The notes under the pieces were generated by a model. It searched no databases. It was not told the origin of the DNA and worked only from the letters and a program-made list of their open reading frames with translations. Shown piece after piece: positions 12,179-29,999 of a DNA stretch of 64,000 nucleotides. Position numbers and translations under genes: made by a program. This stretch comes from Bacteroidota bacterium (lineage in GTDB: Bacteria; Bacteroidota; Bacteroidia; UKL13-3): the NCBI GenBank assembly GCA_046309355.1, contig JBKCPL010000027.1, positions 11,857-75,856 of the forward strand, written 5' to 3'. Numbering within the stretch: position 1 is the first letter of the stretch; each line of letters starts with the position of its first letter.

Positions 12179-12197
12179 AAGTGTTATTTTTACACTT
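12179..12197. promoter_or_regulatory. Putative NrtR-family operator 1
   Basis: AAGTGT-TATTTTT-ACACTT, 25 nt upstream of the GH13 start; the same motif occurs in three other intergenic regions of the locus. Confidence 0.8.
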
Positions 12198-12222
12198 TAT
12201 ACCATAAACACTTTATACTTAA

Positions 12223-15015
12223 ATGAAATACTTCTTCATTGCACATTTTAGCCTGCTACTAGTTGCATTTTCTACACATGCACAACTCGTTACTATTGAC
12301 CCACCTTTTGCAGGTGCAAATGATAACAACGTAGTTATAACGTATGATGCTTCTCAGGGCAATGCCGGTTTGATTGGTCAAAGTACCATTTACGCACATA
12401 CAGGGGTTATTACTTCAGCTAGTACATCGGGCTCTGACTGGAGGTATGTAATTGCCAACTGGACAACTAACCTGCCTAAAGCATTGCTTACGCGTGTGGG
12501 CACCTCTAATTTATATACGTTATCTATCGGAAATATTCGTAGCTTTTATGGAATACCTTCCGGTGAAAGCGTACTTCGTCTAGCATTTGTTTTCCGTAAC
12601 GCAGATGGGTCAAAGACCGGCAAGACTACTTCAGGTGGCGATATATTTATTGATTTGAACCAGGGTAGCTATCAGGCCAGGTTGAACGCGCCTACTAAAG
12701 GTTCATTCTTTGCATTATCCGATAGCTTTACAGTTTCAGCAAGTGCTTCGGCACCATCTGTACTCACCCTTTATGCAAATGGCACTCAGGTAGCACAAGT
12801 AGGCAATACCACATCACTATCGTACAAAAATACACTAGTAGCGTTCGGCAACGACAGACTTAACCTGGTTTTAGAGGGTGATTTAAATGGCACTAAATCA
12901 TACGATTCGCTGTACATTATGCCTAGGCTTACACCACCCACAGCGGCATCGCCTACCGGTATAATAGACGGTATTAATTATATCAACGATTCAACTGTAA
13001 CGCTTCAACTCTTTGCACCGTCCAAGAACTTTGTGTATGTGGTAGGTGATTTTAATAATTGGGAGCTAAGTAAAGCATACTTAATGAACCGCACACCGGA
13101 CAATAACCGATACTGGCTTACCATCACAGGTTTGAAAAAAGGTATTGAATACGGTTTTCAGTATAGCATAGACGATGGGCAGATGAAAGTTGCCGATGTG
13201 TATGCCGAAAAATACCTTGACCCATGGAATGACCCCTGGATTAGCCCTGAAACCTACCCTAACTTAAAGGCATATCCTACCGGAAAAACTACCGAAATAG
13301 TATCGGTAATGCAAATAGGCCAACCGGGTTATACATGGAAAACAACCAACTTTAAGAAACCTACCAAAGATGAACTGGTTATTTATGAGTTGCTGGTAAG
13401 GGATTTCATAGGTAAGCACGATTTTAAAACATTAAAAGATACTATCAGCTACTTTAAAAGACTAGGTGTGAATTGCTTAAAAATCATGCCCATCATGGAA
13501 TTTGAAGGAAATGAGAGCTGGGGTTACAATCCCATGTTTTATTTCGCAATTGACAAATATTACGGTACTAAAAACGATTTTAAGGCATTTGTCGATGAGT
13601 GCCATACCAACGGAATAGCTGTAGTGCTAGACGTGGTTCTGAACCATTCATTCGGACAGAATCCTCAGGTACGTATGTATTTTAATCCTTCAGCAGGTCA
13701 GTATGGGCAACCAACCCCTCAGAATCCGTGGTTTAACGAGGTAGATAAACATCCTTACGGTGTGGGTTACGACTACAATCATGAAGCACAAAGTGTGCGT
13801 GAGTTCACTGATAGGGTGCTTAAGTTCTGGCTAACGGAATACCAAATTGACGGCTATCGATTTGACCTTTCTAAAGGATTTACTCAAAAAAATACGTTGG
13901 GCGATGTTGGGGCCTGGAGTGCATACGATCAGTCGCGTATAAATATTTGGAACAGGATTCGAAATGAAATTATCGCGTATGCTCCGGATGCCTATTTGAT
14001 ACTGGAACATTTAGGCGATAATTCAGAAGAAACGGTATTAGCTAACATGGGCTTTATGCTATGGGGAAAACTTACCGAAGCATATGCAGAAGCCGTTATG
14101 GGTTACAACAATTCGAAAGCCAATCTTAGCTGGGGCAACTACAAAAGCAGAGGATGGAACTCACCTAACTTGGTAACCTATGCCGAAAGCCACGATGAAG
14201 AACGCGTGATGTTCTTTGCACTTAGCTACGGAAATGCAAGCGGTTCCTACAATGTAAAAAACTTAAATACATCCCTTAAACGGGTTGCTGCTTACCATGC
14301 ATTGCTCTTGCCTTTAAGAGGTCCGAAAATGATGTGGCAAGGCGGAGAGTTGGGATATGAGGTATCTATCAACACCAATGGACGCACGGGCAATAAGCCG
14401 TTTCGCTGGGAATACCTAAATGTACCGGAACGTGTAGCAGTTTTAAATCAGGTAGGTAAGTTGGCACGCTTAAAACAGCATGTGTCCTTTTCATCCGATT
14501 CGTACACATACGATGTTGCTGCAACGGGTAAAATACTAAAAGTAAATCATGACAGTATGAATACCGTCATAGCCGGTAATTTTGATGTGGTTGCCTTGAA
14601 TTTGAAACCCGGTTTCCAACACACAGGCTGGTGGTACAACTATATCACAGGCGATTCTATTCAAGTGACTGATGTAACGCAAACTATTTCGCTTCAGCCG
14701 GGAGATTATGTAGTCTTTACCGACAAAAATCTGAATCCATATGTTAGTCCAACCGTTGGATATTCTGAACTGAACAGTAGCTATACAACACACATTTTCC
14801 CTAACCCTGCTCATAACTCCGTTTTTATTCAGTCGGTGAAAAATCCCATCAAACATATTGAGGTAATTGACTACACCGGTAAAGGCATCCTGCAACTCGA
14901 TGTGAACAGTGCAGAAGTGGAGTTATATACAAGCGAATGGCCTGCAGGAATCTATATGGTTAGGTTAACAACCGGACAATCTACAGAAGTAAAAAAGATC
15001 ATTATTACGCATTGA
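12223..15015 (+). CDS. Secreted multidomain GH13 alpha-amylase (N-terminal putative CBM, CBM48-like domain, GH13, T9SS CTD)
   Basis: Signal peptide; VYVVGDFNNW (CBM48-like); SWGYNP; catalytic GYRFDLSKG, ILEHL and ESHDEER; C-terminal IFPNPA...GIYMVRL...KKIII sorting domain. Confidence 0.92.
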   Translation: MKYFFIAHFSLLLVAFSTHAQLVTIDPPFAGANDNNVVITYDASQGNAGLIGQSTIYAHTGVITSASTSGSDWRYVIANWTTNLPKALLTRVGTSNLYTLSIGNIRSFYGIPSGESVLRLAFVFRNADGSKTGKTTSGGDIFIDLNQGSYQARLNAPTKGSFFALSDSFTVSASASAPSVLTLYANGTQVAQVGNTTSLSYKNTLVAFGNDRLNLVLEGDLNGTKSYDSLYIMPRLTPPTAASPTGIIDGINYINDSTVTLQLFAPSKNFVYVVGDFNNWELSKAYLMNRTPDNNRYWLTITGLKKGIEYGFQYSIDDGQMKVADVYAEKYLDPWNDPWISPETYPNLKAYPTGKTTEIVSVMQIGQPGYTWKTTNFKKPTKDELVIYELLVRDFIGKHDFKTLKDTISYFKRLGVNCLKIMPIMEFEGNESWGYNPMFYFAIDKYYGTKNDFKAFVDECHTNGIAVVLDVVLNHSFGQNPQVRMYFNPSAGQYGQPTPQNPWFNEVDKHPYGVGYDYNHEAQSVREFTDRVLKFWLTEYQIDGYRFDLSKGFTQKNTLGDVGAWSAYDQSRINIWNRIRNEIIAYAPDAYLILEHLGDNSEETVLANMGFMLWGKLTEAYAEAVMGYNNSKANLSWGNYKSRGWNSPNLVTYAESHDEERVMFFALSYGNASGSYNVKNLNTSLKRVAAYHALLLPLRGPKMMWQGGELGYEVSINTNGRTGNKPFRWEYLNVPERVAVLNQVGKLARLKQHVSFSSDSYTYDVAATGKILKVNHDSMNTVIAGNFDVVALNLKPGFQHTGWWYNYITGDSIQVTDVTQTISLQPGDYVVFTDKNLNPYVSPTVGYSELNSSYTTHIFPNPAHNSVFIQSVKNPIKHIEVIDYTGKGILQLDVNSAEVELYTSEWPAGIYMVRLTTGQSTEVKKIIITH

Positions 15016-15097
15016 TTTAATAATGCTGATTGGGTTCGTAAAATACTTGCAGCGCAGAGTAGTCATACACTACTTTGCAGAAAAGTTATCTAAACAA

Positions 15098-16558
15098 TCA
15101 ATTTAGCTTTAAGATAAGAACACCACCTGTTGATAGGGTAACTCCCCTACCTGATGTTTTTGCATTTTGCTGGTAAACCACTGAATGTTTGAGGGGCAAA
15201 TAAAGCTGTGCCTCACCGGCATCCAGACGATGAATAATTAGGTATTTGTTCTGAAGGTGATGCAATTCGTAAGCATAACAGCCCTCATACGTCTTATCGG
15301 TTTTTGCAAGTTTACCCAGTGACAAAAAGGGCATTTCATTGCGCAGTTTTATCCATTTTTTATAATACGTATATAAACTTTGCTCATTGGACATCTGCAG
15401 GTCTAGCGGTACAACAGTAGTAGTTGTTGTGTACTGTGGTTTTTCCCATGTTGTAGTATAAGAGCTTTGGCGGCTCCACAAAAACGGCTCACGCCTAAGT
15501 TCATCAGGGAATTTGCCGAGCATACCAATTTCTTCGCCATAATACAAAAACGGTATACCGGGCAAAGTAAACAATATAGCGACTGCCTGTTTCACTCGCA
15601 CCATATCCTGATTCAATATGGACACATACCTGTCTTGATCATGATTCGTTATGAAAATAGCATCTGTGTACGATGAATTGTAAGAACTGTAAAGTGCATG
15701 CATAGCGATTAATTTATCAATAAAGTCATCAGCCTTTGAAGTGCTAACAGCACGTAAAATGGCCGAAGACAAATCAAAGTTAAAGCAGGCATCCATTCCA
15801 TCCTTTAAGTACGCAGCTACTAAACTATCCTTATTCCAAACTTCACCAATGATGTAAGCCTCCGGATTTATCTTCTTAACATGCTTATGAAACGTAGTCC
15901 ACCAGCGCATATTTTTCTCCGGTTCGTGGGGCTCGTAAATATGTTGTGCAGCATCCAACCTGAAACCATCAACACCCGCAGCTAACCAAAAAGAAGCAAT
16001 CTTTAGTACTTCCTGTTCAACTTCAGGATTATCAAAATTGAGGTCGGGCATTTGCTCCCAGAAAAAGCCATAATACTTTTGCTGAGGATTTTTTAAGTTG
16101 TTATACCAACCTTTTGTCTTAGCGGTATCGCTCCATACATAGTAATCGACAAAAGGCGCTTTGCCTTCACAGGCACTTAAAAACCATGGGTGACGGCTGC
16201 TAGTATGATTTACTACCAAATCCATTACCACTTTAATATTGCGTATGTGTGCCTGAGCAAGAAGTTCTTTAAAATCATCCATCGTGCCGTATTCAGGATC
16301 GATGGAGTAGTAATCCATTACATCGTATTTATGGTATGTAGGTGAAAGATGAAAAGGAGTAAGCCATAGCCCTCCAATACCGAGTTGTTGTAAATAATCC
16401 AATTTTTGTGTTATCCCTTTTAAGTCGCCTATCCCATCACCGTTTCCATCGGCAAACGAGCGAATAAATATTTCATAAAATACTGGCGTTGGTTTTTTAG
16501 CTTGTGCAAACACATTCACACTGCACAAAACGAGCATAGATAATAGTACTTTTTTCAT
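15098..16558 (-). CDS. GH13 alpha-amylase/alpha-glucosidase, probably periplasmic
   Basis: SPI signal (VFA-Q); FADGNGDGIGDLKG, YHKYDV, DLVVNH, MPDLN, GFRLDA, GEVW, NHDQDR, YYGEEIG. Confidence 0.92.
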   Translation of the reverse strand: MKKVLLSMLVLCSVNVFAQAKKPTPVFYEIFIRSFADGNGDGIGDLKGITQKLDYLQQLGIGGLWLTPFHLSPTYHKYDVMDYYSIDPEYGTMDDFKELLAQAHIRNIKVVMDLVVNHTSSRHPWFLSACEGKAPFVDYYVWSDTAKTKGWYNNLKNPQQKYYGFFWEQMPDLNFDNPEVEQEVLKIASFWLAAGVDGFRLDAAQHIYEPHEPEKNMRWWTTFHKHVKKINPEAYIIGEVWNKDSLVAAYLKDGMDACFNFDLSSAILRAVSTSKADDFIDKLIAMHALYSSYNSSYTDAIFITNHDQDRYVSILNQDMVRVKQAVAILFTLPGIPFLYYGEEIGMLGKFPDELRREPFLWSRQSSYTTTWEKPQYTTTTTVVPLDLQMSNEQSLYTYYKKWIKLRNEMPFLSLGKLAKTDKTYEGCYAYELHHLQNKYLIIHRLDAGEAQLYLPLKHSVVYQQNAKTSGRGVTLSTGGVLILKLN

Positions 16559-16584
16559 CGAGATTATTTGTAATTATACAATAT

Positions 16585-16603
16585 TAGTGTATTTTGTACA
16601 CCT
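16585..16603. promoter_or_regulatory. Putative NrtR-family operator 2, between divergent GH13 and MFS genes
   Basis: TAGTGT-ATTTTGT-ACACCT in a 65-bp divergent intergenic region. Confidence 0.75.
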
Positions 16604-16623
16604 AATAGCAATTAATCTAACCT

Positions 16624-17874
16624 ATGGCATTAACTACCTCTACCCTGAAAGAACCCTCTGTGCATGAAGACAAACCTGTTTCGAATGCAGGCATTGCTTT
16701 GGCCTCTCTCATGACGTTGTTTTTTATGATGGGGTTTATCACCTGTCTGAACGACATACTTATACCATACATGAAAGCGATATTCCAGCTTAATTATGCT
16801 CAGGCTAATTTTATTAACCTGTGTTTTTTTGGTGCGTATTTTTTTATGTCTATCCCATCGGGAATGCTCATTAATCGTATTGGGTATAAAAAAAGTATGA
16901 TAGCAGGATTTATAATTGCCGCTATAGGTTGTTTTTTATTTTATCCGGCTGCAGGCAGTAAAATTTACGGGCTGTTTCTGGCAGCACTATTTATTCTGGC
17001 ATCCGGCATCACTTTGCTTCAGGTAGCGGGCAATCCGTATGTTGCCGCACTGGGTCCATCATCTTCTTCATCTGCTCGTCTTACATTAACCCAGGCATTT
17101 AATTCAGTTGGCACCACCATCGCACCGTATTTTGGCAGTATGCTTATACTTTCCGGATTGCCAAAAGACGTTTCGATTATTGAAAACATTGACGTAAGTG
17201 CAGTGCAAAAACCGTATATATGGATTGGTCTTTTGCTGGTTGCGATTGCCGCAGTTCTGGTGCTGCTAAAGTTACCCGCTATTGAGCACGGAGGGAAACA
17301 GCAAAACACCAGTGCAAAAAAAGCATGGCAATACCCGCATTTGGTACTAGGAGCTGTTGGTATTTTTTGTTACGTGGGTGCTGAAGTAGCCATTGGAAGC
17401 CACATTGTAAGTTACCTGCAATTACCTGATGTAATGGGTATGCAAGCTGATGAGGCGGGAAAATACGTATCCTACTACTGGGGCGGTGCCATGATTGGTC
17501 GATTCATTGGCAGCTGGATTCTCAGTAAATTCAAGCCTGGAAATGTACTGGCGTTTAATGCTTTGATGGCTTTTGTATTGGTTATGATTTCTATTTTAAG
17601 CGGTGGGGCAACGGCTATGTGGAGCTTGCTTGCGGTGGGTTTATTTAACTCCCTGATGTTTGCCACTATTTTCACATTGGCTGTAGAAGGTTTGGGAGCA
17701 CAAACTGATGAAGGATCAGGCATTTTATGTACAGCTATAGTGGGTGGAGCACTTATACCCTTTTTATATGGAATAACCGGTGATATTTTTAGCTTAAAAA
17801 CAGCATATTTGCTACCGGCATTATGCTATATATACATTATTTATTACGGATTAAAAGGCTATAAACACTCATGA
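16624..17874 (+). CDS. Glucose/galactose MFS transporter (FucP/GluP family)
   Basis: LFFMMGFITCLNDILIP, LQVAGNPY, YVGAEV and YWGGAMIGRF motifs; about 12 TM segments. Confidence 0.92.
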   Translation: MALTTSTLKEPSVHEDKPVSNAGIALASLMTLFFMMGFITCLNDILIPYMKAIFQLNYAQANFINLCFFGAYFFMSIPSGMLINRIGYKKSMIAGFIIAAIGCFLFYPAAGSKIYGLFLAALFILASGITLLQVAGNPYVAALGPSSSSSARLTLTQAFNSVGTTIAPYFGSMLILSGLPKDVSIIENIDVSAVQKPYIWIGLLLVAIAAVLVLLKLPAIEHGGKQQNTSAKKAWQYPHLVLGAVGIFCYVGAEVAIGSHIVSYLQLPDVMGMQADEAGKYVSYYWGGAMIGRFIGSWILSKFKPGNVLAFNALMAFVLVMISILSGGATAMWSLLAVGLFNSLMFATIFTLAVEGLGAQTDEGSGILCTAIVGGALIPFLYGITGDIFSLKTAYLLPALCYIYIIYYGLKGYKHS

Positions 17875-18743
17875 TACTCATTGCAGACAGCGGATCTACC
17901 AAAACAGACTGGGCGCTCACACATCCTGAAAAGGGACTGGTCAGAATTTATCACACCATTGGTTACAATCCGTATTTTATTGATTCTGAATCCATCTTTT
18001 ATTCCTTATCCGAAAATCTGGTAAAGGACTTTGATGCGTCTAGCGTAACCGAGGTACATTTCTACGGTGCTGGCTGTTCGACACCTGAAAAAAAAGAAAT
18101 TGTTAAGAAAGCGTTGGTTAGAATATTCGCCAATGCTGAATCGATATTTGTTGGCCATGATCTGCTGGGATCAGCAAGAGCTTTACTGGGAAATACTGAG
18201 GGTTTTGCAGCCATATTGGGAACGGGTGCAAACACCTGCCTGTACAATGGTGAAGAGTGCGTACTAAATATAGATTCATTGGGCTATCTGCTGGGTGATG
18301 AAGGCAGCGGCAGTTACATCGGAAAGAAAATTATACGTGATTTTATGCGCAAACGCCTTGAGCCCGAATTACACCAACGTTTTAAAGAGCGCTTTCAGAT
18401 TGAAAGCAACGAACAAATATTCCATACACTTTACACCACCCAATTTCCTAACCGATACCTGGCGAGCTTTTGCAAATTTGCCGATGAGTATTTAACACAT
18501 CCGTATATTAAAAATAAGGTGCGTGATTCATTTAGAGATTTCTTTAAAAACCTGGTGAGCAAGTATCCCGACTACAAAAAATACAGCTTTAATTGCGTGG
18601 GCTCTGTTGGCTATGTTTTCAGAGAAATACTGGAGGAAGTAGCCGTAAGCTACGATATGAAAATGGGCAGGGTTATTCAATCACCGCTTGACGACCTGGT
18701 GAAATTTCACCTGCAACAGGTAAAAGCCAAAACAACGGCTTAA
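17871..18743 (+). CDS. BadF/BadG/BcrA/BcrD-type sugar kinase (GlcNAc-kinase-like; probable glucokinase)
   Basis: IADSGSTKTDW, FYGAGC, ILGTG and LGDEGSG ASKHA motifs; ATGA overlap with the MFS gene. Confidence 0.85.
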   Translation: MILIADSGSTKTDWALTHPEKGLVRIYHTIGYNPYFIDSESIFYSLSENLVKDFDASSVTEVHFYGAGCSTPEKKEIVKKALVRIFANAESIFVGHDLLGSARALLGNTEGFAAILGTGANTCLYNGEECVLNIDSLGYLLGDEGSGSYIGKKIIRDFMRKRLEPELHQRFKERFQIESNEQIFHTLYTTQFPNRYLASFCKFADEYLTHPYIKNKVRDSFRDFFKNLVSKYPDYKKYSFNCVGSVGYVFREILEEVAVSYDMKMGRVIQSPLDDLVKFHLQQVKAKTTA

Positions 18744-18787
18744 CTTAAAGCCACAAATAATTTACTAACGTCCGCAGGTTGTGGCTG

Positions 18788-21241
18788 CTACCAACTTATG
18801 GTTATTTCATCCTTGCTGTGCTCAGTTACAAATGATCCCACTTCTGTTTTTTTAGCATCAATGCTTTTTCCTATCGGATCAAACTGAGATACTCCCGGCA
18901 TCATTTCCAATTGCGCATTGGCTACATTCACAGCTTTGCCATTTAACTTAATAGAAGCATTGGCAGGAAAACCATGCATGTAAAAACGTAGGAATTTATA
19001 CTTGGAAACATGATTGCCTATCGCCTTTGAAGCACTTAATGTGTTACTGGAAGGTTGATACGTAAAATTTCTTGAAAGGAATTTTCCATTGCGGTATTCA
19101 TACATGTCGCCTTGATCTTCGTAATACTCAAACGTATTGGCCTGTTTGCCGTAATAAAAATGAATAGCCAAGGTATCGGAAGGCTTTTCGCCTGCATGCT
19201 GTACAACGGTTTGCATCGGTATGATACTGCCTCCTTTTACATAAACCGGCAACATTTCCATCGGTGTTTCTACATACAATTCGCGGTTGCCTTCATATTT
19301 TTCTTCGGTAAAAAACTGATACCACTCACCTGCAGGCAAATACACCTTATTAATTTCTTTATAGCTTGTAACAGGAGCAACCAATATGCCGTGCCCAAAC
19401 ATATATTGATTCTGGTATTTCCAATCATACACCATCGGGTCATAGGTATGTGTAATGGCCAAACTGCGTGCAACAGGCATTCCGTTTTTGGTTGATTCAT
19501 AAAACGAACTGTATAGATAAGGCATAAGGCGATAGCGGAGTGAAATATAATTCCTTACGATTTCTTCTACCTTCTCACCATAACTCCAAGGTTCACTGTC
19601 TTTGGCATCAATCATTTTATGGCTTCTGAAAAACGGGCAGAAAGACCCGATTTGCATCCAACGGCAAAACAACTCCTTAGATGCCTCGCCTGCAAATCCT
19701 CCAACGTCATATCCTGCATTGGAAACACCACTTAATCCCAAACTATTTATTAAACGAACACCCGCCAACATATGGTCATCATCCGGGCGGTTATCGCCTG
19801 TCCATATGGCTGAATAACGCTGAATACCTGCATACGCTGCACGTGTTAAAATAAAAGGCCGCTTTCCTTTCATCAGTTCTTTGCTGCCTTCAAAAGTGCT
19901 GCGAGCCATTTGCATACCATACACATTGTGCCACTCGCGGTGTGATGCCTTGCGGCCTTCAAAATCAGCTTCTACCAAATCAGGGAAACGTTGCCCCCAG
20001 GTAGCGGGCTCATTCATGTCGTTCCAAAAACCATCAATTCCATCGTTGATGTATCCTGCAAATGATTGTCCCCACCACTTTCTGGCTTTGGGTTTTGTAA
20101 AATCCGGAAAGTGACACCAGCCGGGCCAAACTTGTCCCGTGTAGTTGGTTCCGTCAGGATACTTTAAAAACAATTCATCCTTCAGGCCTTCTTCATAAGC
20201 TTTATAACCCTTCTCTACTTTTATACCCGGATCAACAATCACCACATTTTTAAAGCCCATGCCTTCCAGCTCATCCAGCATTTTTTTCGGCTGAGGGAAA
20301 CGCTCATTGTTCCAGGTAAATATTTTGTATTGATCCATATAATGGATATCGAAATAAATCACATCGGAAGGAATTTTTTTATCGCGAAAAGTTTTGGCCA
20401 GCGTAATTACTTCCTTGTCGGGATAGTAACTGTATCGACACTGCTGAAAGCCGATGCTCCAAAGAGATGGCATTTCCATACGGCCTGTTAATGCAGTGTA
20501 TGATTCGATAATTCCCGCGACAGTTGCAGACGCAAATAAATAATAGTTCATCTCCCCATCTTCTGCTGTAAATGAACTGAAACGATTGTTAGATGCTCCG
20601 AAATTAAAGTGTGATTTATAGGTATTGTCTAAAAACAAACCGTATACCACATTATGGTGCACGCCCATGTAAAAAGGAATTGATGCATAGATAGGGTCTC
20701 CGTTTGACGGATAGGCAAAGTAATCGGTATTCCAGTTGGTAAAACCTTCGCCTCTTCTATTGAGGTTACCTGTTTTTTCTCCTAACCCGATAAACTTTTC
20801 ATCATCCTGCATTTTTTTGTACGTACTCACTTCTTCCCCTATCCATCCGGTACCAAATGCTGGCTCGTCTTCATTCAATAACTCGCCTTTATGATTGAAT
20901 AGTGCAATTCGTGCAGGATTTTTAGTAATAACCAGATAACAAGAGTCGGTGCGCAATTCATACGCTGAACCTTTATCAGTAACATTAATTAAACCAGCAA
21001 CAGGCTTGGCTTGTACGGCATAACTAAAGTCCTCAAAAGATGTTGATTTATTAATTTGCACGCGTATACACACAGGCGAATACGCACTGATACGAATGTG
21101 GCCGGTAGACGTATTGAATAGCACATAAGGTTCTTTATTGCTGTAGCCATTAATAGAGCCTAGTGACTGATGAAGTTTAGCCTGCGAATTAGCTTGTAAA
21201 CAAATTACTATAGAGAAAATACTTAGAATTATTTTTTTCAT
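18788..21241 (-). CDS. GH31 alpha-glucosidase
   Basis: Start moved to MKKIILSIF (signal peptide) at 21241; GLGEK, GFWNDMNEP nucleophile, WTGDN acid/base, DVGGF. Confidence 0.93.
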   Translation of the reverse strand: MKKIILSIFSIVICLQANSQAKLHQSLGSINGYSNKEPYVLFNTSTGHIRISAYSPVCIRVQINKSTSFEDFSYAVQAKPVAGLINVTDKGSAYELRTDSCYLVITKNPARIALFNHKGELLNEDEPAFGTGWIGEEVSTYKKMQDDEKFIGLGEKTGNLNRRGEGFTNWNTDYFAYPSNGDPIYASIPFYMGVHHNVVYGLFLDNTYKSHFNFGASNNRFSSFTAEDGEMNYYLFASATVAGIIESYTALTGRMEMPSLWSIGFQQCRYSYYPDKEVITLAKTFRDKKIPSDVIYFDIHYMDQYKIFTWNNERFPQPKKMLDELEGMGFKNVVIVDPGIKVEKGYKAYEEGLKDELFLKYPDGTNYTGQVWPGWCHFPDFTKPKARKWWGQSFAGYINDGIDGFWNDMNEPATWGQRFPDLVEADFEGRKASHREWHNVYGMQMARSTFEGSKELMKGKRPFILTRAAYAGIQRYSAIWTGDNRPDDDHMLAGVRLINSLGLSGVSNAGYDVGGFAGEASKELFCRWMQIGSFCPFFRSHKMIDAKDSEPWSYGEKVEEIVRNYISLRYRLMPYLYSSFYESTKNGMPVARSLAITHTYDPMVYDWKYQNQYMFGHGILVAPVTSYKEINKVYLPAGEWYQFFTEEKYEGNRELYVETPMEMLPVYVKGGSIIPMQTVVQHAGEKPSDTLAIHFYYGKQANTFEYYEDQGDMYEYRNGKFLSRNFTYQPSSNTLSASKAIGNHVSKYKFLRFYMHGFPANASIKLNGKAVNVANAQLEMMPGVSQFDPIGKSIDAKKTEVGSFVTEHSKDEITISW

Positions 21242-21293
21242 AACTGTATTTTTACAAGACACAATGATACATAACATCCAGTTAGTATCAAAC

Positions 21294-21312
21294 CTGTGTA
21301 CGCATAACACTT
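21294..21312. promoter_or_regulatory. Putative NrtR-family operator 3, between divergent GH31 and the NrtR gene
   Basis: CTGTGT-ACGCATA-ACACTT; position fits autoregulation. Confidence 0.7.
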
Positions 21313-21349
21313 ATTTCGCAGAAAAATTTATTTTCGCTGTACCTTTATC

Positions 21350-22063
21350 ATGAAAAAAAGTACCTTCCAGAAACACCTATCTGTCGATTGTGTCATTTTC
21401 GGGTTTGACGAAAGCAATAATAAATTTGAAGTATTGCTCATTGAGCAAAAAGACCCATCACAAAAATCTACACATACATACAGACCCCAATTTGCCCTAC
21501 CAGGTGATTTGATAAACGAGAAAGAGAGCCTTGATGAGGCCGCTACACGTGTTTTAAAAGAGCTTACCCACGTAGAAGGTTTAGTATTGAGGCAATTTCA
21601 CACCTTTGGCGACCCCTTGCGTGTAAAACAAACCAAGGACAAAGAATGGCTGGCGTTTTACCGTTCAGATCCGGATGCACGTGTGGTAACCATAGCGTAT
21701 TATACTTTGGTGCGCAAAGAAATGATACGACCAATACCGGGGTCATTTGCGAAAAACGTTGTGTGGAAGAATGTACAACGAGTGCCGCCATTGGCTTTTG
21801 ACCATAATCTAATTGTTAAAACAGCGCTTGACGATATAAGAACCCGAATGCACTATAACCATATTGCAGAGCAGCTACTGCCGGTAAAATTCACTTTGCG
21901 TCAATTGCAAAACCTGTATGAAGTAGTACTGAATACTACGTTTGACAAACGAAATTTCATCAAGCGTTTCAAAAAAGATGAGGAACTCATCGAGTTGGGC
22001 GAAAAGCAGAAGGGTGTATTGCACAAGCCTGCGAAGTTGTATTCGTTTAAAACCCGCCATTGA
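21350..22063 (+). CDS. NrtR-family transcriptional regulator (Nudix + winged HTH)
   Basis: LSVDCVIFGF, degenerate Nudix box GDLINEKESLDEAATRVLKELT, LAFDH, and wHTH FTLRQLQNLYE...DKRNF...PAKLYSF. Confidence 0.92.
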   Translation: MKKSTFQKHLSVDCVIFGFDESNNKFEVLLIEQKDPSQKSTHTYRPQFALPGDLINEKESLDEAATRVLKELTHVEGLVLRQFHTFGDPLRVKQTKDKEWLAFYRSDPDARVVTIAYYTLVRKEMIRPIPGSFAKNVVWKNVQRVPPLAFDHNLIVKTALDDIRTRMHYNHIAEQLLPVKFTLRQLQNLYEVVLNTTFDKRNFIKRFKKDEELIELGEKQKGVLHKPAKLYSFKTRH

Positions 22064-22093
22064 TTTTTAATCGAGTGTCAATATAGTAAGCAT

Positions 22094-22125
22094 AAAAAAA
22101 GCCCGGCAATGCCGGGCTTTTTTTT
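22094..22125. terminator. Bidirectional intrinsic terminator between the NrtR gene and the T9SS binding protein gene
   Basis: A7-GCCCGGC-AAT-GCCGGGC-T8 between convergent genes. Confidence 0.9.
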
Positions 22126-22140
22126 GAGAGTTTGATTCGT

Positions 22141-23850
22141 TTACTGTACAATCAGTTTCAGCACACGTGATTCTCCATTAGCACCAGTTAAGCGCACAAA
22201 GAATAAGCCATTGCCTAATTCCTCTTTCGAGAGTTTCACTTCTTTAGATTCTGTTTGAATACTTTTCAGTACACGTCCTGTAATGTCAATTACCGAGATA
22301 TTTACTTCACCTTTTACTGAGCTCAGGTTAAGTGTAGCAAATTCTTTGGCAGGGTTAGGATACATTACAACCTGGTTGAATAAACCAGCTACTTTGTTCA
22401 ATCCTACAGAAATGGTAGCACACTTGTTATAAACATAAGCTAATACCACAGCAGCTGTATCGGTTCTAGTATATTTACGGTTAAAGCCACCCAATCCGTT
22501 TGGCTCAAGACAAGCACGTGAAGCAGTGTCAGGATAGGTTTCTTCACTAGCCTGCAGTGATGAGTCGCCATTTAAAAATTTATAGTTGAATGAACCAGGG
22601 CATACATTATTTACTGTTATAGCAAATACACCAGGCTCACCGGCTACAGGATTTAAACGCAGTGCACCCGCTTGCCAGTTTGGAGTTTGGAATGTACCCA
22701 TAACATAAATTCTTCCTTGTGGATCCGGAACTTCATTTGACATATCCACTTTAAACGTAATGCTTGAAGGGGCTGGCTTAGGAACACATGGTGAAGATGA
22801 GCCGAAGCAATTAGGTGCCAAAACAGAATCTTTATCTAATACATACGTTCTGTCTCCTCCGCCTTCCCAGTTGGTGTTGCCATTTTTGTGGAAGCGGAAT
22901 TTGAATTTAACTTCACCTGAGTCGAGCTCAATTACTGCTGAGTAAACATTGCTCGTTCCTACTTGATTCAGTTTAACACCGCTGCCCCAGTTAGTCAATT
23001 CAGAGCGGGCACCGGCAACTGTAACTGAATCAAATCCACCATCGCAATTGCTGTTCGACATGTCCACACGGAAAGTAATATCGTAGCGTGGAAGCGGAGC
23101 AGCAGGACAAGCGATACATGAATTGAAGCATACAATAGCTTCAGCTTTGCTGGCATTGGAAACTACCTGACGGTTACCATTTACAGCGCAACTTGATGGA
23201 ACGGACTCCCAGCCACCATCTCCATTTTTAAATTTGTATTCGTAAGACATTCCGGTGTCAAGAATAGCAATGTACTCATACAATTTGTTAGATGTATACA
23301 GGTTAGTCATGGAACGCTGACCTGCACCCCAACTTGTAAATGCACCGGCAATAAATACACCGTCATTGGCTACTGTTTCATTTTTCAGATCCACAGCAAA
23401 ACGCACTGCATTTTTACCTGCTGGGGCATTACCGTTGAACAAATAAGCGGGTAGGTCTGTGGTATCATTCGCTGATGAGTCGATAAACATCCAGCGATTA
23501 CCGTTAGATTGTCCATTGTTCGGATGACCTTTTTGGCTCAACGAAGGAACTGACTCGGGTACGCTAGGGCTATTCCAGTCGTTGCCGTTGATGAATTTAA
23601 ATTCATAATAACGTCCGGCAGGAATGTCAACCACAACAGCATAAATTTCGCTTGAACCTACTTTTGTTAATGGAGTTTCATTGGGTTTCCAGTCGCCAGA
23701 GGCGCCCGCTTCACTTTGAAAATCGCCAGCAACGTGTACACCGTTTGAGCTGACAGCAGTTCCGGTCATATCAACCTGAAATCTGACTTTTTTTGCAAAT
23801 GCACCTGAAAACATTCCAAGTGCAGCTGTGAATAGTAATAGTTTTTTCAT
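22141..23850 (-). CDS. T9SS-secreted non-catalytic protein with four tandem CBM20/CBM48-like starch-binding modules
   Basis: Signal peptide; four repeats of FxVD[ML]...[VI]xG...W...[YF]KF...R; C-terminal MYPNPA...GLFFVRL...KLIVQ sorting domain; no catalytic motif seen. Confidence 0.75.
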   Translation of the reverse strand: MKKLLLFTAALGMFSGAFAKKVRFQVDMTGTAVSSNGVHVAGDFQSEAGASGDWKPNETPLTKVGSSEIYAVVVDIPAGRYYEFKFINGNDWNSPSVPESVPSLSQKGHPNNGQSNGNRWMFIDSSANDTTDLPAYLFNGNAPAGKNAVRFAVDLKNETVANDGVFIAGAFTSWGAGQRSMTNLYTSNKLYEYIAILDTGMSYEYKFKNGDGGWESVPSSCAVNGNRQVVSNASKAEAIVCFNSCIACPAAPLPRYDITFRVDMSNSNCDGGFDSVTVAGARSELTNWGSGVKLNQVGTSNVYSAVIELDSGEVKFKFRFHKNGNTNWEGGGDRTYVLDKDSVLAPNCFGSSSPCVPKPAPSSITFKVDMSNEVPDPQGRIYVMGTFQTPNWQAGALRLNPVAGEPGVFAITVNNVCPGSFNYKFLNGDSSLQASEETYPDTASRACLEPNGLGGFNRKYTRTDTAAVVLAYVYNKCATISVGLNKVAGLFNQVVMYPNPAKEFATLNLSSVKGEVNISVIDITGRVLKSIQTESKEVKLSKEELGNGLFFVRLTGANGESRVLKLIVQ

Positions 23851-23906
23851 AATGTGTTATTCAAATATGATTCGAATATAAAATTATTTTTAACAAAAAA
23901 ACAAAT

Positions 23907-23925
23907 AAGTGTAGGAAATACACTT
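23907..23925. promoter_or_regulatory. Putative NrtR-family operator 4, between the divergent binding-protein gene and susC
   Basis: AAGTGT-AGGAAAT-ACACTT, perfect 6-bp arms. Confidence 0.8.
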
Positions 23926-24012
23926 TCAATTTTCTAAATCGCACTGTCAATTTATGTTTTTCTATTGAGAAACAGCTATAAATTGGTATCAGAATATTAA
24001 ACATTATTACAT

Positions 24013-27000
24013 ATGAAAGGAACGATACTTACATTCGTATTGGCTGCCATCTTTACACAGGCGGGAGCACAAACTATTTCAGGAAAAGTAACCGACAACC
24101 AAAATCAACCTTTAATTGGTGTAGTGGTTATGGCTGAAGGTACTCAAAAAGGAGATGTAACAAATATAGATGGGAATTATACCATACAGGGCCTGCAGCA
24201 GGGTAAATATAAAATACGTTTTCAATTTACAGGCCTTAAAACCGAATACAAAACTGTGGAACTTGGTGCTGCACCAGTTGTAATTAATATGTCACTCAAA
24301 GAAGACCCCAAGCAACTGGATGAAGTCGTGGTAGTTGGGTATGGTGTGCAGCGCAGAAGAGAACTAACGTCATCCATCGCTAAAATTTCTACAAAAGAGC
24401 TTACCGATCTACCTGTTCAAAGTTTTGAGCAAGCCATGCAGGGTAAGCTTGCAGGTGTTGCTGTTACGCAGGGCAGCGGAGTTGCAGGTTCTCCGTCTAT
24501 TATTCGCATACGGGGTATAAGTTCTATTAGTGCCAGTGGCGATCCTTTATACGTAATAGACGGAATTCCGATTACTCAAAGCTATGCTGTTTATGGGAAC
24601 AGCGGTGGATTCAACTTTAATCCGCTTGCAACCATCAACCCGAATGATATAGAATCAGTAGAAGTTTTAAAAGATGCAGCTGCAACTGCTATTTATGGAT
24701 CCAGAGGCGCTAATGGAGTTATTATGATAACGACCCGCAGGGCCAAAAAAGGCAAGCTCGCTATTACCTATAATGGTCAATTAGGTTTTTCAACGCCTAC
24801 AGCACGCCCTAAGCTGGTTAGCAGAGATGAATTTTTGCAGCTGTATGAAGAAGCGTGGATTAATGATGGCCGGGTGGGGAAACCCGATTTATCGGTAGGT
24901 GGTATTACAGGCATAACATGGGATGAAGCACGCAATAACAATACCGACTGGTATAGCGCAACAACACAAACAGGAGTTAGACACCAGCACGATATAACCC
25001 TCTCCAAAGGGTGGGATAAATTCAATGTATTCTCCAGCATATCGTATCTTAAAAACGAAACCTTTATACGTGGAAATTCGTATGAACGAATAAGTACACG
25101 TTTCAATATGGATTATCAAATTCTTAAAAACCTGAAAGCTTCATTTGGAACATCATTTACCTCGGGTTTGAATAACCGTATATACAGCGGTTGGTCAGGC
25201 GGATTCGGTTTAGTAATGTCATCGGCACTGCCTATATATCCTATCCGAAATGCAGACGGAACTTATTTTACCTTCAATAACTCAGATGCAGCATTTAGAA
25301 CAAATCCGGTGATGATGCAGGACCTCTACAAATGGGAAACCCGCGAATTGCGTTCCATCAATTCAATAAGCCTGGATTATCAGGTGATTAAAAACCTAAG
25401 CGTACGTGCACAAGGAAATTACGATTACCAGAACATAGCAGACGATAATTTTTCGCCTGCTGAATTGCTTCGTGCTACCCGAGCTGATACAACAGGAATT
25501 GCCCGCAGAGATGCTAACCATACCAATAACTACAACTACACTATTCAGGCAACGTACAATTACGATATCAATAAGTTCAATAACATTAGCGTTACAGGTG
25601 GTTTTGAAAGACAACGTTCTGTAACCAATGGTGTAAGTTTGCAACAACGAAATGCTACAGGATTGTTGCAATCAAATGAGCCTACTTCTGTTCCCTATTT
25701 TACTTCAAGTGGTACACCCAATCCTAACTTTCTGTCGACAAACAAATTGCAGCAAGAATGGATATTCGAACGCTATTTCAGCCGATTTAATTACAGCCTG
25801 TGGCAGCGTTACTATGCTCAGGTATCGTTAAGCTACGATGGCTCATCACGCTTCGGTACTAACTACCGCTACGGTTTCTTCCCTGCGGTGTCAGCCGGAT
25901 GGAACATTTCAGATGAAAGCTTCCTATCAGGAAATAAAACCATCAGCTACCTCAAATTGCGTTCATCGTATGGTAAGGCCGGTAACTCTGATTTTGAAAA
26001 CGATGCGCGTTTCGGATTTTTCCAGCTATCGCCAGGAACACCGTACAACGGACAACCAATTTTATACCCTACTAAACTTGAAAACAGAAACCTTCGCTGG
26101 GAAACTTCGTGGACGTTTAACGTTGGCCTCGACTTTGGCTTATTTAATGACCGCATAACCGGTACGGTTGAATACTACGACAAACGAAGTTCTGATATTA
26201 TTATGCGTTTAAATATTGACCCGTCAAACGGCTTTAGTGAATATTTTGACAATGTTGGCTCTATAAGAAATCACGGTATTGAACTTTCGTTGAAGTCAAA
26301 CAATATAGTAGGTCGCAACTTTAAATGGACTACTCAGTTTGTTATTGCACGCAACCTTAATGAGCTTACCAGTACAGGAAACTACACCGAAGAAGCGGTG
26401 AGTGGCGGTACCAATGATACACGAATAGTTGTGGGTAGTCCGGTGGGTACTTTTTATCTGGTACGCTTCTCGCACGTTGATAAAGAAACCGGAAGACCTG
26501 TATATCTAGATAAAAACGGAAACGAAACCTTTACCTGGGACCCCAGCAATCGAGTTCCTGTTGGCTCCATTTTGCCCAAAGCTACAGGAGGCTTAACAAA
26601 TACCTTTCAATACAAAAACTGGGATCTGAGTATATTATTTATTTTCCAAATTGGTGGCAGCATATACGATGCTTCGGCCAAGCGTCAGCTGGGTGTAGTT
26701 TCATTCTGGAATATACGTCCGGAAATTGCAGACAGGTGGCAAAAACCGGGTGACGATGCCAAATTTCCTCGATTAACGCTGGATGCATCTAACTATGGCC
26801 TTCCCAACTACTGGCAGTACAACACCACAATGTGGATGTATGATGCCAGCTTTGTGCGTTTGCGTAATTTGTCAATCGGATATAACCTGCCAGCTAAATG
26901 GGCTAAAAAAGCCGGAATGGGATCAGCTCGAATAGGATTTATCGGAACCAACCTCTTAGTGTTTACCTCCTATCCCGGATTGGATCCTGAAATTGCACGC

Positions 27001-27111
27001 GATGGAGAAGGCAATATCAATCAATCGCGAAATATGCAGGCACAAAATACCTATTACCTGAATGCACCTCAGGAAAGAACCTACAATTTTCAAGTTACTT
27101 TAACCTTTTAA
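24013..27111 (+). CDS. susC: SusC/RagA family TonB-dependent transporter
   Basis: LDEVVVVGYG, PLYVIDG, DIESVEVLKDAAATAIYGSRGANGVIMITT, LRWET; C-terminal Phe; 1032 aa. Confidence 0.96.
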   Translation: MKGTILTFVLAAIFTQAGAQTISGKVTDNQNQPLIGVVVMAEGTQKGDVTNIDGNYTIQGLQQGKYKIRFQFTGLKTEYKTVELGAAPVVINMSLKEDPKQLDEVVVVGYGVQRRRELTSSIAKISTKELTDLPVQSFEQAMQGKLAGVAVTQGSGVAGSPSIIRIRGISSISASGDPLYVIDGIPITQSYAVYGNSGGFNFNPLATINPNDIESVEVLKDAAATAIYGSRGANGVIMITTRRAKKGKLAITYNGQLGFSTPTARPKLVSRDEFLQLYEEAWINDGRVGKPDLSVGGITGITWDEARNNNTDWYSATTQTGVRHQHDITLSKGWDKFNVFSSISYLKNETFIRGNSYERISTRFNMDYQILKNLKASFGTSFTSGLNNRIYSGWSGGFGLVMSSALPIYPIRNADGTYFTFNNSDAAFRTNPVMMQDLYKWETRELRSINSISLDYQVIKNLSVRAQGNYDYQNIADDNFSPAELLRATRADTTGIARRDANHTNNYNYTIQATYNYDINKFNNISVTGGFERQRSVTNGVSLQQRNATGLLQSNEPTSVPYFTSSGTPNPNFLSTNKLQQEWIFERYFSRFNYSLWQRYYAQVSLSYDGSSRFGTNYRYGFFPAVSAGWNISDESFLSGNKTISYLKLRSSYGKAGNSDFENDARFGFFQLSPGTPYNGQPILYPTKLENRNLRWETSWTFNVGLDFGLFNDRITGTVEYYDKRSSDIIMRLNIDPSNGFSEYFDNVGSIRNHGIELSLKSNNIVGRNFKWTTQFVIARNLNELTSTGNYTEEAVSGGTNDTRIVVGSPVGTFYLVRFSHVDKETGRPVYLDKNGNETFTWDPSNRVPVGSILPKATGGLTNTFQYKNWDLSILFIFQIGGSIYDASAKRQLGVVSFWNIRPEIADRWQKPGDDAKFPRLTLDASNYGLPNYWQYNTTMWMYDASFVRLRNLSIGYNLPAKWAKKAGMGSARIGFIGTNLLVFTSYPGLDPEIARDGEGNINQSRNMQAQNTYYLNAPQERTYNFQVTLTF

Positions 27112-27123
27112 TTAAGACGTACC

Positions 27124-28554
27124 ATGAAATTAAATACAGTAAGCACACTTTTATATACAGCTGTTCTGGCACTGGCCTTATCTGTCAGCTCTTGCGAAAA
27201 AAATCTGGATGTAGAATTGGAAACAGGTCCTGAGGCGTTAACACCTGAAAATGCTATCAAAAGCAAAGACGACCTGCAGAAACTGCTCAATTCTTGCTAC
27301 GATGCATGCGCCAATATGATGAACGGTCAGTTTCAGGTATCTTCTGATTTGCTGGCAGACGATGTTAGTAAACCCACCAACAACGATGGATTTATAACAG
27401 GTATTTACAACCGCCAAAGCGACCAGTTTAATACGTTTATCGGACGAGCGTTTGCTCAACCCTATTTTACCATCTACCGCTGTAACGTAATGGATCTGTA
27501 TTATGACAAAGTTGAAATAAGCGATGCAGAGAAAAACCGCTTACAGGGTGAAGCAGCTTTTCTGAGAGCCTTGTGCCATTTCGAGGCTGTTAAACTATGG
27601 GCACACCCTTATGGCTTCACACCTGATAACTCACATCTGGGAATAATCATTCGGAAAAGAGCGCTAAATGAAGCTATACCACGCAGCACAGTTAAAGAAA
27701 CTTACGATTACATTATTAGTGAGCTGCAAAGTGCAATAGGTAAATTACCGGAGCAGAATGGGGTGTATGCCACAAAAAATGCTGCTAAAGCGTTACTTGC
27801 CAAAGTATATTTTCAGATGAATGACTATACCAATGCGCTAACACTTCTTGATGAAGTAATAAATACCGGTGGGTATCAGTTAAGTGACAGCTTGAACAGA
27901 TTTGTACGTGAGAATAGTGTGAATGAAGTGGTGTTTGGATTTGTGAGCGGTAATAACGCTTACGAAACTGGCAGTCGCAGTGGTGAGTTTAAAGACAAAT
28001 ACAGAAACGACTTGCAAGGCGATAATGTACTGCCTGTATTATGTTTATCAGCTGAATTGGCGGGAATACTAAAAAGCGATACCACCGATCAGCGAGGCAA
28101 ACTGACACGTACCTATAATAAAGGGCAGCCTAATGAGCAAATGGCCACTACAAAATTTAATCTGAATAATTTTGCAACACCCTATATACACTTAACCGAC
28201 CTGAAACTGATGCGTGCAGAAATACTCGCTATACAAGGCAACGCATCTTCAGCTATTAGTGATTTAACTCCTATCATAAAACGAGCTTACCTGCCAAGTG
28301 CAAGCAAAGAAACATATGTAGCCACCTTAAGCGGAAATGCGTTAGTGGAAGAAATACGTTTGCAACGCAGAATTGAGTTGAATTGCGAAGGCGACCGACT
28401 GCATCAGGTAAAAAGAATAGGCGTAAGCAAAGGTCAAAATAATCTGATGGTTAGAGGTGTGCCTTGGAATTGCAACGGAATGATCTTACAGTTCCCAGCA
28501 TCCTGCGGAACATCACGTGTATTTGAATTTAACCCTACTACTATTTGCAATTAA
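27124..28554 (+). CDS. susD: SusD/RagB family surface lipoprotein
   Basis: Lipobox VSSC, GEAAFLRALCHF, AKALLAKVY, LMRAE, RRIELNCEGDR. Confidence 0.93.
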   Translation: MKLNTVSTLLYTAVLALALSVSSCEKNLDVELETGPEALTPENAIKSKDDLQKLLNSCYDACANMMNGQFQVSSDLLADDVSKPTNNDGFITGIYNRQSDQFNTFIGRAFAQPYFTIYRCNVMDLYYDKVEISDAEKNRLQGEAAFLRALCHFEAVKLWAHPYGFTPDNSHLGIIIRKRALNEAIPRSTVKETYDYIISELQSAIGKLPEQNGVYATKNAAKALLAKVYFQMNDYTNALTLLDEVINTGGYQLSDSLNRFVRENSVNEVVFGFVSGNNAYETGSRSGEFKDKYRNDLQGDNVLPVLCLSAELAGILKSDTTDQRGKLTRTYNKGQPNEQMATTKFNLNNFATPYIHLTDLKLMRAEILAIQGNASSAISDLTPIIKRAYLPSASKETYVATLSGNALVEEIRLQRRIELNCEGDRLHQVKRIGVSKGQNNLMVRGVPWNCNGMILQFPASCGTSRVFEFNPTTICN

Positions 28555-28560
28555 TAATAT

Positions 28561-29076
28561 ATGAAAAATAGAATTTTAAAAGTTATGGTATGTGCGTTTC
28601 CGCTGCTGTGGGGCGCTTGCGAAAAACCCTATGACGAGACTAAAAAAATAGGTCCGCCACGGTTTAATCCGGAGCAAATAATGACCGTACTTGAAGGCAA
28701 ATGGCAAATGCTTTCAGCCAAACAGGTAGATGAAAAGTCATTGACTAAGGAGTCGATTGATATTACTGATTTTTTCACACAGGAACCCGGTTCGAATGTA
28801 CCAACTCTTGTTTTTAAATCAGACTTTACCTTTACAGCCGACACCACCGGTGTAGCGGTTGATTATTTTGGAGTAACCTCCGGTAAATGGAATTTTGATG
28901 ACCCGGCCTACCCCACCGTGATAAACCTTTCGGATGCGAATGATCTACCAGTAGGTAGTATAGGCATAGGTGCAAACCTGCTTAGCCTTAATCCCATGCT
29001 GCTGTATACCAAATCAGCGATGTGCGGGGAAGAAAAAGCATTTACGTACAACCTTGAATTTCTAAAGCAACAGTGA
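28561..29076 (+). CDS. PUL-associated lipoprotein (DUF5004-like)
   Basis: Lipobox WGAC, GKWQM and GKWNFDDPAYPT, reminiscent of DUF5004 lipoproteins found after susD. Confidence 0.6.
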   Translation: MKNRILKVMVCAFPLLWGACEKPYDETKKIGPPRFNPEQIMTVLEGKWQMLSAKQVDEKSLTKESIDITDFFTQEPGSNVPTLVFKSDFTFTADTTGVAVDYFGVTSGKWNFDDPAYPTVINLSDANDLPVGSIGIGANLLSLNPMLLYTKSAMCGEEKAFTYNLEFLKQQ

Positions 29077-29968: not shown

Positions 29969-29999
29969 AAAGCATGTTCAAAATGGGCATGCTTTTTTT
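29969..29999 (+). terminator. Intrinsic terminator closing the susCD operon
   Basis: AAGCATGTTCA-AAA-TGGGCATGCTT followed by a T-tract. Confidence 0.8.

Follow-up and report, generated by a model that had tools for sequence, protein, structure and literature searches.

A 64-kb stretch of freshwater Bacteroidota DNA (called the window below; source genome G000, 2.59 Mb and 99.6% complete) carries an 18-kb locus for alpha-glucan use in which each promoter-bearing gap holds a palindrome with the core GTGT-N7-ACAC. With a probability that we put at about 0.75, these four palindromes are the operators of the AraR-like regulator encoded at 21350-22063, a degenerate Nudix domain joined to a winged helix-turn-helix (wHTH), which would repress the seven transcription units of the locus until a sugar binds. 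This reading is carried by what is seen in silico: the sites, their placement and conservation, their co-occurrence with the regulator, and the GTGT-reading residues of the protein. A preliminary description of the window had proposed a starch/glycogen-to-glucose system run by a Nudix-wHTH regulator, and the proposal holds at this level, as the sole regulator of the locus appears to be AraR-like with its GTGT-reading residues kept, and the predicted sites are conserved in position and absent where the regulator is missing.

We infer dimer binding, repression and induction by sugar by analogy with characterized members of the family. In the proposed mechanism, a regulator dimer without inducer would sit on GTGT-N7-ACAC in all four promoter regions and hold down the secreted amylase, which bears a sorting domain of the type IX secretion system (T9SS), the second GH13 enzyme, the MFS transporter with its glucokinase-like kinase, and the GH31 enzyme, together with its own gene, the secreted starch-binding protein and the SusC/SusD operon. 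A small sugar of the pathway would then enter the Nudix pocket, reorient the wHTH domains in the way that arabinose acts on AraR, and free the DNA.

Palindromes in the promoter regions of the locus

The preliminary description listed four 19-bp copies of GTGT-N7-ACAC at 12179, 16585, 21294 and 23907, all of which are present as quoted. The core has exactly four matches in the window (12181-12195, 16587-16601, 21296-21310 and 23909-23923), and these occupy the four promoter-bearing gaps of the alpha-glucan locus, one per gap. Since the locus comprises 11 genes between 12223 and 29944 in seven transcription units, the description's count of seven units covered by four sites agrees with the gene map and the gene directions. 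The open reading frame (ORF) map of the window contains 29 gaps of at least 30 bp (3,393 bp in total), and the other 25 hold no match; the preliminary description had likewise noticed the motif in no other intergenic region. Site 21296 is non-coding only if the GH31 gene starts at ATG 21241; a start at GTG 21310 was rejected in favor of this codon, which is supported by orthologue lengths of 816–817 aa.

The same picture emerges on the scale of the genome. The core matches 45 times in the 2.59 Mb, 12 of these matches lie outside ORFs of at least 120 aa (about 9.5% of the DNA), and four of the 12 are those at the alpha-glucan locus. At the background non-coding rate, 0.018 sites would be expected in the four gaps where four were found (post-hoc Poisson P ∼4e-9). 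It is scarcely credible that the palindromes arose by chance or serve only as structural elements (hairpins or terminators, for example) without any role in regulation. Of 100 shuffled versions of the window, 3 do reach four copies of the core (mean 0.85), and a relaxed 17-mer with up to two mismatches shows no enrichment (28 found versus 28.5 expected); near-perfect copies alone stand out. However, all four lie in promoter gaps, their position is conserved in loci down to ∼50% regulator identity, and the locus's three convergent gaps (15016-15097, 18744-18787 and 22064-22140), where terminators would sit, have none. Two near-matches were also seen within coding regions of the window (5119-5135 and 35094-35116), one with a single mismatch to the 17-mer and the other scoring 17.1 with the position weight matrix (PWM) described below; both are taken as chance.

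The regulator and its predicted ligand

The regulator is a protein of 237 aa with an NrtR-type winged-helix domain at residues 175–233 (PF21906, 75.6 bits versus a cut-off of 27), a Nudix domain (PF00293, 28.7 bits) and an AraR-type C-terminal domain (PF19368, 28.2 bits versus a cut-off of 23.8). Where the Nudix signature requires R-E-U-x-E-E-x-G, it reads R-V-L-K-E-L-T-H; two of the three Glu residues of REUxEE are replaced and the following Gly is a His. The same two Glu positions are lost in BtAraR (BT0354; PDB 5BS6, 5DD4, 5DDG, 5DEQ), the L-arabinose-responsive NrtR-family repressor of Bacteroides thetaiotaomicron, and the Nudix domain of the window protein is predicted to be catalytically dead and sensor-like. 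BtAraR is also the nearest solved relative by sequence (PDB 5bs6, HMMER E 2e-26). An AlphaFold model built with 61 family sequences (mean predicted local distance difference test score, pLDDT, 88.8) returned AraR as the first Foldseek match in the PDB (E 8e-20, TM 0.70–0.75), followed by the NrtR of Shewanella.

In the crystal of BtAraR with DNA, GTGT is contacted from the recognition helix by Lys179, Arg180, Asn181 and Lys184, and two residues of the wing take part as well (PMC4666351); the operator strand used reads GTGT, seven bases, ACAC (PMC4666351, Table 2). The HMMER alignment places the sequence D-K-R-N-F-x-K of the window regulator on this helix. The motif is kept in 6 of 6 close orthologues. 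In a set of 61 family members its D, N and F never vary, and conservation of its K and R is 90% or more.

The sugar pocket is less closely matched. The arabinose triad of BtAraR, Arg34/Arg86/His131, aligns to K34, S106 (next to R105) and H152, and indels adjoin two of these positions; the His and Phe of the AraR pocket are kept (H152, F150) and Arg34 aligns with Lys. Two insertions are found relative to AraR, one of ∼6 residues in the loop closing over arabinose and one of ∼15 residues modeled as a helix at 95–104, where D97, W100 and R105 are conserved across the family. We infer this correspondence of pocket residues from the alignment. The arabinose branch is recognized by the full triad together with ara genes; here the triad is incomplete and the neighbors are alpha-glucan genes. 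By analogy with AraR, which responds to the free sugar released in its own pathway, glucose would be the likeliest ligand and the simplest guess, with maltose or a hexose phosphate as alternatives. All branches of the family regulon described below meet at glucose and its phosphates.

A classical NrtR that senses ADP-ribose or a nucleotide-derived ligand, and couples starch use to NAD status, is quite improbable at this locus. It is true that NrtR_WHD is the best Pfam domain match and NF050029, the model for the ADP-ribose-responsive repressor, the only NCBIfam match, and that the family-specific helix at 95–104 enlarges the Nudix domain compared to AraR. However, NF050029 scores only 81.4 bits against a cut-off of 400 and no NAD gene is found among the conserved neighbors, so that the protein falls short of the ADP-ribose NrtR equivalog, and its closest match by both sequence and fold is AraR. 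The regulator belongs to the NrtR family and would work like AraR, outside both the ADP-ribose NrtR proper and the arabinose branch. In public records, members of the family are named hypothetical protein, 8-oxo-dGTP diphosphatase, NUDIX domain-containing protein or MutT.

G000 encodes two NrtR_WHD proteins. The second, 42% identical to the first, is encoded outside the window (C29:2711-3331, locus L035:2654-3376) and reads DKSNF instead of DKRNF, with Ser replacing the intercalating Arg. Its gene adjoins an MFS_2 sugar transporter, a GH30 and a GH17 gene, which form a beta-glucan (laminarin-like) set. This protein, too, may regulate a glycan locus as a member of the NrtR family; no site of the GTGT type was found near its gene.

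Conservation of the sites and reach of the family

The regulator has a match in 18 of 41 related genomes (counting G000 itself), the closest being those of G015 (91% identity), G016 and G019 (74%), G012 (71%) and G037 (54%). In both G015 and G019, strict sites fall in the three divergent gaps that hold them in the window; G012 combines one strict site with three of 1–2 mismatches at the equivalent gaps, and G037 has a single site, located between the regulator and a PFK-kinase-MGS operon. No strict site was found in G016. Loci of the G016 type have a variant palindrome with TTGTA or ATGTA arms; those with such arms (L041-L045, L049 and L054-L059) encode regulators of 54–77% identity, next to kinase, beta-PGM-like, GH65, GH13 and MFS operons. 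No covariation of half-site variants with the recognition helix was seen by eye, and the G016 protein, the sole variant-arm regulator aligned, keeps D-K-R-N-F.

Operator 2 is conserved in three further loci and operator 4 in six. Across nine aligned GH31-regulator gaps, invariance is confined to the palindrome arms, and the spacer between them varies. The gap between the CBM-protein and SusC genes (window 23885-23950; 7 loci) has a conserved block wider than the palindrome, taking in a run of A on its left side and, on its right, a run of T and a short block that contains GC; this extra conservation may reflect a promoter or leader. Seven sites, from the window locus and three orthologous loci, served to train the PWM. 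A scan of the genome and of the loci of relatives, as proposed in the preliminary description, shows that the motif recurs upstream of orthologues: sites fall at the same gaps in orthologous loci, and G013 (100% complete), which has no regulator match, has none. In that one genome, the gaps of the orthologous GH13-T9SS, CBM, GH31 and GH13 cluster contain no PWM match of at least 12.

Elsewhere in G000, a fifth strong palindrome (C14:5544, also L037:5544; PWM 23.5) lies ∼90 bp upstream of a gene for a 256-aa outer-membrane beta-barrel. It was rejected as a further member of the regulon, as 0 of 6 homologous loci in four relatives have an upstream site scoring at least 10. The glycolysis genes of G000 were likewise rejected, with no site at PFK (C21) or glyceraldehyde-3-phosphate dehydrogenase (GAPDH; C57). 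The regulon in G000 is the alpha-glucan locus, and the PFK link of its relatives does not hold here.

For a family-scale survey, one genome per species was scanned and, out of 536 relatives, the best 80 (43–91% identity) were kept. Most come from metagenome-assembled genomes of freshwater Bacteroidota, with Marivirga lumbricoides and Fulvivirga imtechensis also represented. Their loci contain 76 strict sites in 159.5 kb of non-coding DNA versus 12 in 957 kb of coding DNA. For the 74 regulators with an upstream gap of at least 40 nt (three further loci were too short), the best upstream palindrome beats 95% of shuffles in 61 cases, a count that is not independent for the loci used in PWM training, and 99% in 54. 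A Pfam-checked panel found BadF-like kinases in the flanks of 44 (40 + 4) of the 80 loci, HAD/beta-phosphoglucomutase-like genes in 30, PFK in 24, GH65 in 22, GH31 in 14, SusC in 12 and GAPDH in 7. Strict sites fall no more than 300 bp upstream of the regulator in 46/77 loci, of PFK in 19/24, of the CBM protein in 10/11, of GH31 in 7/14, of SusC in 6/12 and of the T9SS GH13 gene in 4/13. The family consensus operator, TWAGTGT-N7-ACACTWA, is a 21-bp palindrome with a GT-N7-AC core and is partly circular because its sites were picked with the PWM.

Family neighborhoods consist of alpha-glucan polysaccharide utilization loci (PULs), maltose-phosphorylase operons, or phosphofructokinase and glucokinase-like genes, and the family regulon is wider than one PUL, extending to maltose-phosphorylase operons and glycolysis genes. 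In a quick tree, the window regulator falls in a clade of 16 (SH-aLRT 99) whose readable contexts are all alpha-glucan PULs or GH65 operons.

The survey also bears on whether the sites belong to some other DNA-binding protein, such as a global carbohydrate regulator, with the Nudix-wHTH gene a bystander or in charge of something else. The GTGT core is indeed read by other AraR-like proteins. However, site and regulator co-occur in the 61 of 74 loci mentioned above, spread over many lineages, neither was found with the G013 cluster, and the only other NrtR_WHD protein of the genome is without the intercalating Arg, making this explanation very improbable.

Several observations weigh against the operator–repressor reading. 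An upstream site is missing from 13 of the 74 family loci, and ∼16 of 77 loci have no panel carbohydrate gene in the fetched flank; some of these are on short contigs, and three longer ones that were checked have unrelated neighbors. The strong site at C14:5544 lies outside the locus and is without a conserved counterpart in relatives. PWM scores on the training loci are circular because the matrix was trained on those seven sites. The residues that bond arabinose are only partly kept (K34, S106 or R105, H152), and the ligand is not readable from homology. No exact TAnnTTTG box was found in the four gaps, and one-mismatch matches to it are too common in AT-rich DNA. Finally, operators 3 and 4 may lie just upstream of −33 elements, an arrangement that would fit an activator as well.

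This last point relates to an unlikely but more serious alternative, namely that the same protein acts on the same sites as an activator or dual regulator at some promoters, with operators 3 and 4 upstream of divergent −33 elements. The centers of these two operators are 47–97 bp from start codons and, in our reading of the alignments, conserved −7-like blocks lie 26–45 nt outside the operators. A weak hint in the same direction comes from RNA contigs of two studies, whose ends at 23848 and 23856 lie beside the start codon of the starch-binding protein, ∼50–70 nt from operator 4. On the other hand, characterized NrtR and AraR proteins are ligand-released repressors (PMC2330246, PMC4666351). 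Moreover, operators 1 and 2 must overlap the core promoter or 5′ leader because they are 30–36 bp from start codons, a position that fits occlusion and not activation. By analogy with AraR and NrtR, we favor ligand-released repression. A sigma-70 promoter scan was set aside; it gave 35 matches versus 50.9 in shuffles, the model being unsuited to the phylum.

Four runs of freshwater metatranscriptomes, belonging to three studies, contain RNA pieces nearly identical to the locus, and their longest contigs cover the gene of the starch-binding T9SS protein (window 22141-23856). These contigs are uninformative on regulation because they come without starts, strands or levels, and contig depth cannot rank genes; stretches that no contig covers carry no weight either.

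Locus content and comparison with known systems

The features of the locus are listed in Table 1. It has the makeup of a PUL, with neighboring SusC-like and SusD-like genes, two GH13 enzymes, one GH31 enzyme and a CBM20/CBM48 protein, and the genes that flank it are unrelated to carbohydrate use. Both PF00128 matches of the genome fall within it, as does the sole GH31 match found. A Pfam search found no catalytic domain in the starch-binding protein. We consider the BadF-like kinase to be a probable glucokinase because no kinase of the ROK or Glk family was found in the G000 genome; its homologues in relatives adjoin PFK, GH65 and beta-PGM-like genes. The locus has a single regulator gene, and no SusR-like gene was found among its 11 genes, the rest of the genome not having been searched for SusR. 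Two genomes of the same genus, G001 and G002 (84% and 94% complete), were seen to have neither the regulator nor GH31, and G015, from another genus, holds the locus with proteins ∼90% identical. The locus is possibly accessory, or was transferred.

Table 1. Features of the alpha-glucan locus, in window coordinates. Distances are from the operator center to the start codon.
Feature	Position	Strand	Basis or remarks
Operator 1 (predicted)	12179..12197		35 bp upstream of T9SS GH13 start; PWM 22.2
Secreted alpha-glucan hydrolase	12223..15015	+	GH13 catalytic domain, CBM48, T9SS C-terminal sorting domain (Pfam, NCBIfam)
GH13 alpha-amylase or alpha-glucosidase-like enzyme	15098..16558	-	Pfam Alpha-amylase, E 3e-92
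Operator 2 (predicted)	16585..16603		65-bp divergent gap; 36 bp from GH13 start, 30 bp from MFS start
MFS glucose/galactose-type transporter, gluP subfamily	16624..17874	+	TIGR01272, 334 bits versus cut-off 202.6
BadF/N-acetylglucosamine-kinase-like ASKHA kinase	17871..18743	+	Weak family matches; overlaps end of MFS gene
GH31 alpha-glucosidase	18788..21241	-	Pfam; NF040948 MalA-like
Operator 3 (predicted; autoregulatory and GH31)	21294..21312		47 bp from regulator start, 62 bp from GH31 start
NrtR/AraR-family regulator, degenerate Nudix and winged HTH	21350..22063	+	PF21906, PF00293, PF19368
T9SS-secreted starch-binding protein	22141..23850	-	X25, CBM48/AMPK-CBM, CBM20 (Pfam)
Operator 4 (predicted)	23907..23925		Divergent gap; 66 bp from CBM-protein start, 97 bp from SusC start
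SusC-like	24013-27111	+	Pfam
SusD-like	27124-28554	+	Pfam
DUF5004	28561-29076	+	Pfam
DUF4961-like	29078-29944	+	Pfam
Terminator-like hairpin after last gene of locus	29969-29995		Terminator scan

PUL switching is known mainly from gut Bacteroides, where it involves SusR, hybrid two-component systems and extracytoplasmic function (ECF) sigma factors. In a 2020 paper, PUL regulatory pathways were still called unknown in marine Bacteroidetes. The NrtR family has been credited with NAD, phosphoribosyl pyrophosphate (PRPP) and pentose regulons (PMC2330246, PMC3878776, PMC4666351). In the full-text literature, a search scope with curated regulon databases and the supplements and Figure 1A of PMC4666351 (a tree of Bacteroidetes NrtR proteins in which this branch might figure) outside it, we found no published description of an NrtR/Nudix regulator for a starch, PUL or glucose regulon, and the 2008 NrtR paper (PMC2330246) does not contain the words pfk, phosphofructokinase, glycoly-, amylase, maltose or glucokinase. 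The system would represent a new functional branch of the known NrtR/AraR family.

We give even odds to a broader view, in which an unrecognized hexose/alpha-glucan branch of NrtR/AraR proteins serves as the main transcriptional switch across environmental Bacteroidota for alpha-glucan capture, maltose phosphorolysis, glucose phosphorylation and the first committed steps of glycolysis (PFK, GAPDH), sensing glucose or a hexose phosphate through a Nudix pocket rebuilt by the family-specific helix. The whole starch locus appears to be run by a compact one-component regulator whose operator code can be read, and in many uncultured freshwater lineages maltose and upper-glycolysis genes appear to be under its relatives. 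If so, alpha-glucan and glucose regulons would become predictable from sequence alone, a widespread mis-annotation as MutT or 8-oxo-dGTPase would be corrected, and the ligand range of Nudix-domain sensors would grow from ADP-ribose and pentoses to hexoses or their phosphates.

The literature background given in the preliminary description agrees with the sources. NrtR motifs are mostly palindromes of 21 bp built around GT-N7-AC (PMC2330246), the Bacteroides proteins AraR and XylR belong to the NrtR family and regulate pentose genes (PMC3878776, PMC4666351), and SusR governs the model starch system (PMC7641319). With the ADP-ribose-responsive NAD repressors called NrtR in Shewanella oneidensis and Synechocystis, the window system shares the two-domain family PF21906, a 21-bp GT-N7-AC operator and an impaired Nudix signature. 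It differs in that its regulon contains no NAD genes, its NF050029 score is 81 versus 400, and the regulator is closer to AraR than to SoNrtR. As in the SusR system of B. thetaiotaomicron, the window locus combines SusC and SusD in the outer membrane with starch binding at the surface, GH13 enzymes and an alpha-glucosidase, a set that would be induced as a whole. In B. thetaiotaomicron, however, SusR is an inner-membrane sensor of starch-derived oligosaccharides that controls the other sus genes (PMC7641319), whereas the sole regulator gene of the window locus encodes a cytoplasmic one-component Nudix-wHTH protein with predicted operators in every promoter region, and the enzymes and binding protein carry T9SS sorting domains.

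BtAraR has in common with the window regulator a degenerate Nudix domain and wHTH, the GTGT-N7-ACAC core and the base-reading K, R, N and K, and it too controls SusC/SusD-containing loci along with a monosaccharide transporter and catabolic genes. The two proteins are only ∼31–32% identical, and the window regulator has the two insertions and does not keep both Arg34 and Arg86. The BtAraR pathway is that of arabinan and pentoses, whereas the window locus is one of alpha-glucan and hexoses, without a hybrid two-component regulator that shares control. Finally, BtAraR has tandem operator sites at araM, whereas the window locus has a single operator per promoter region.

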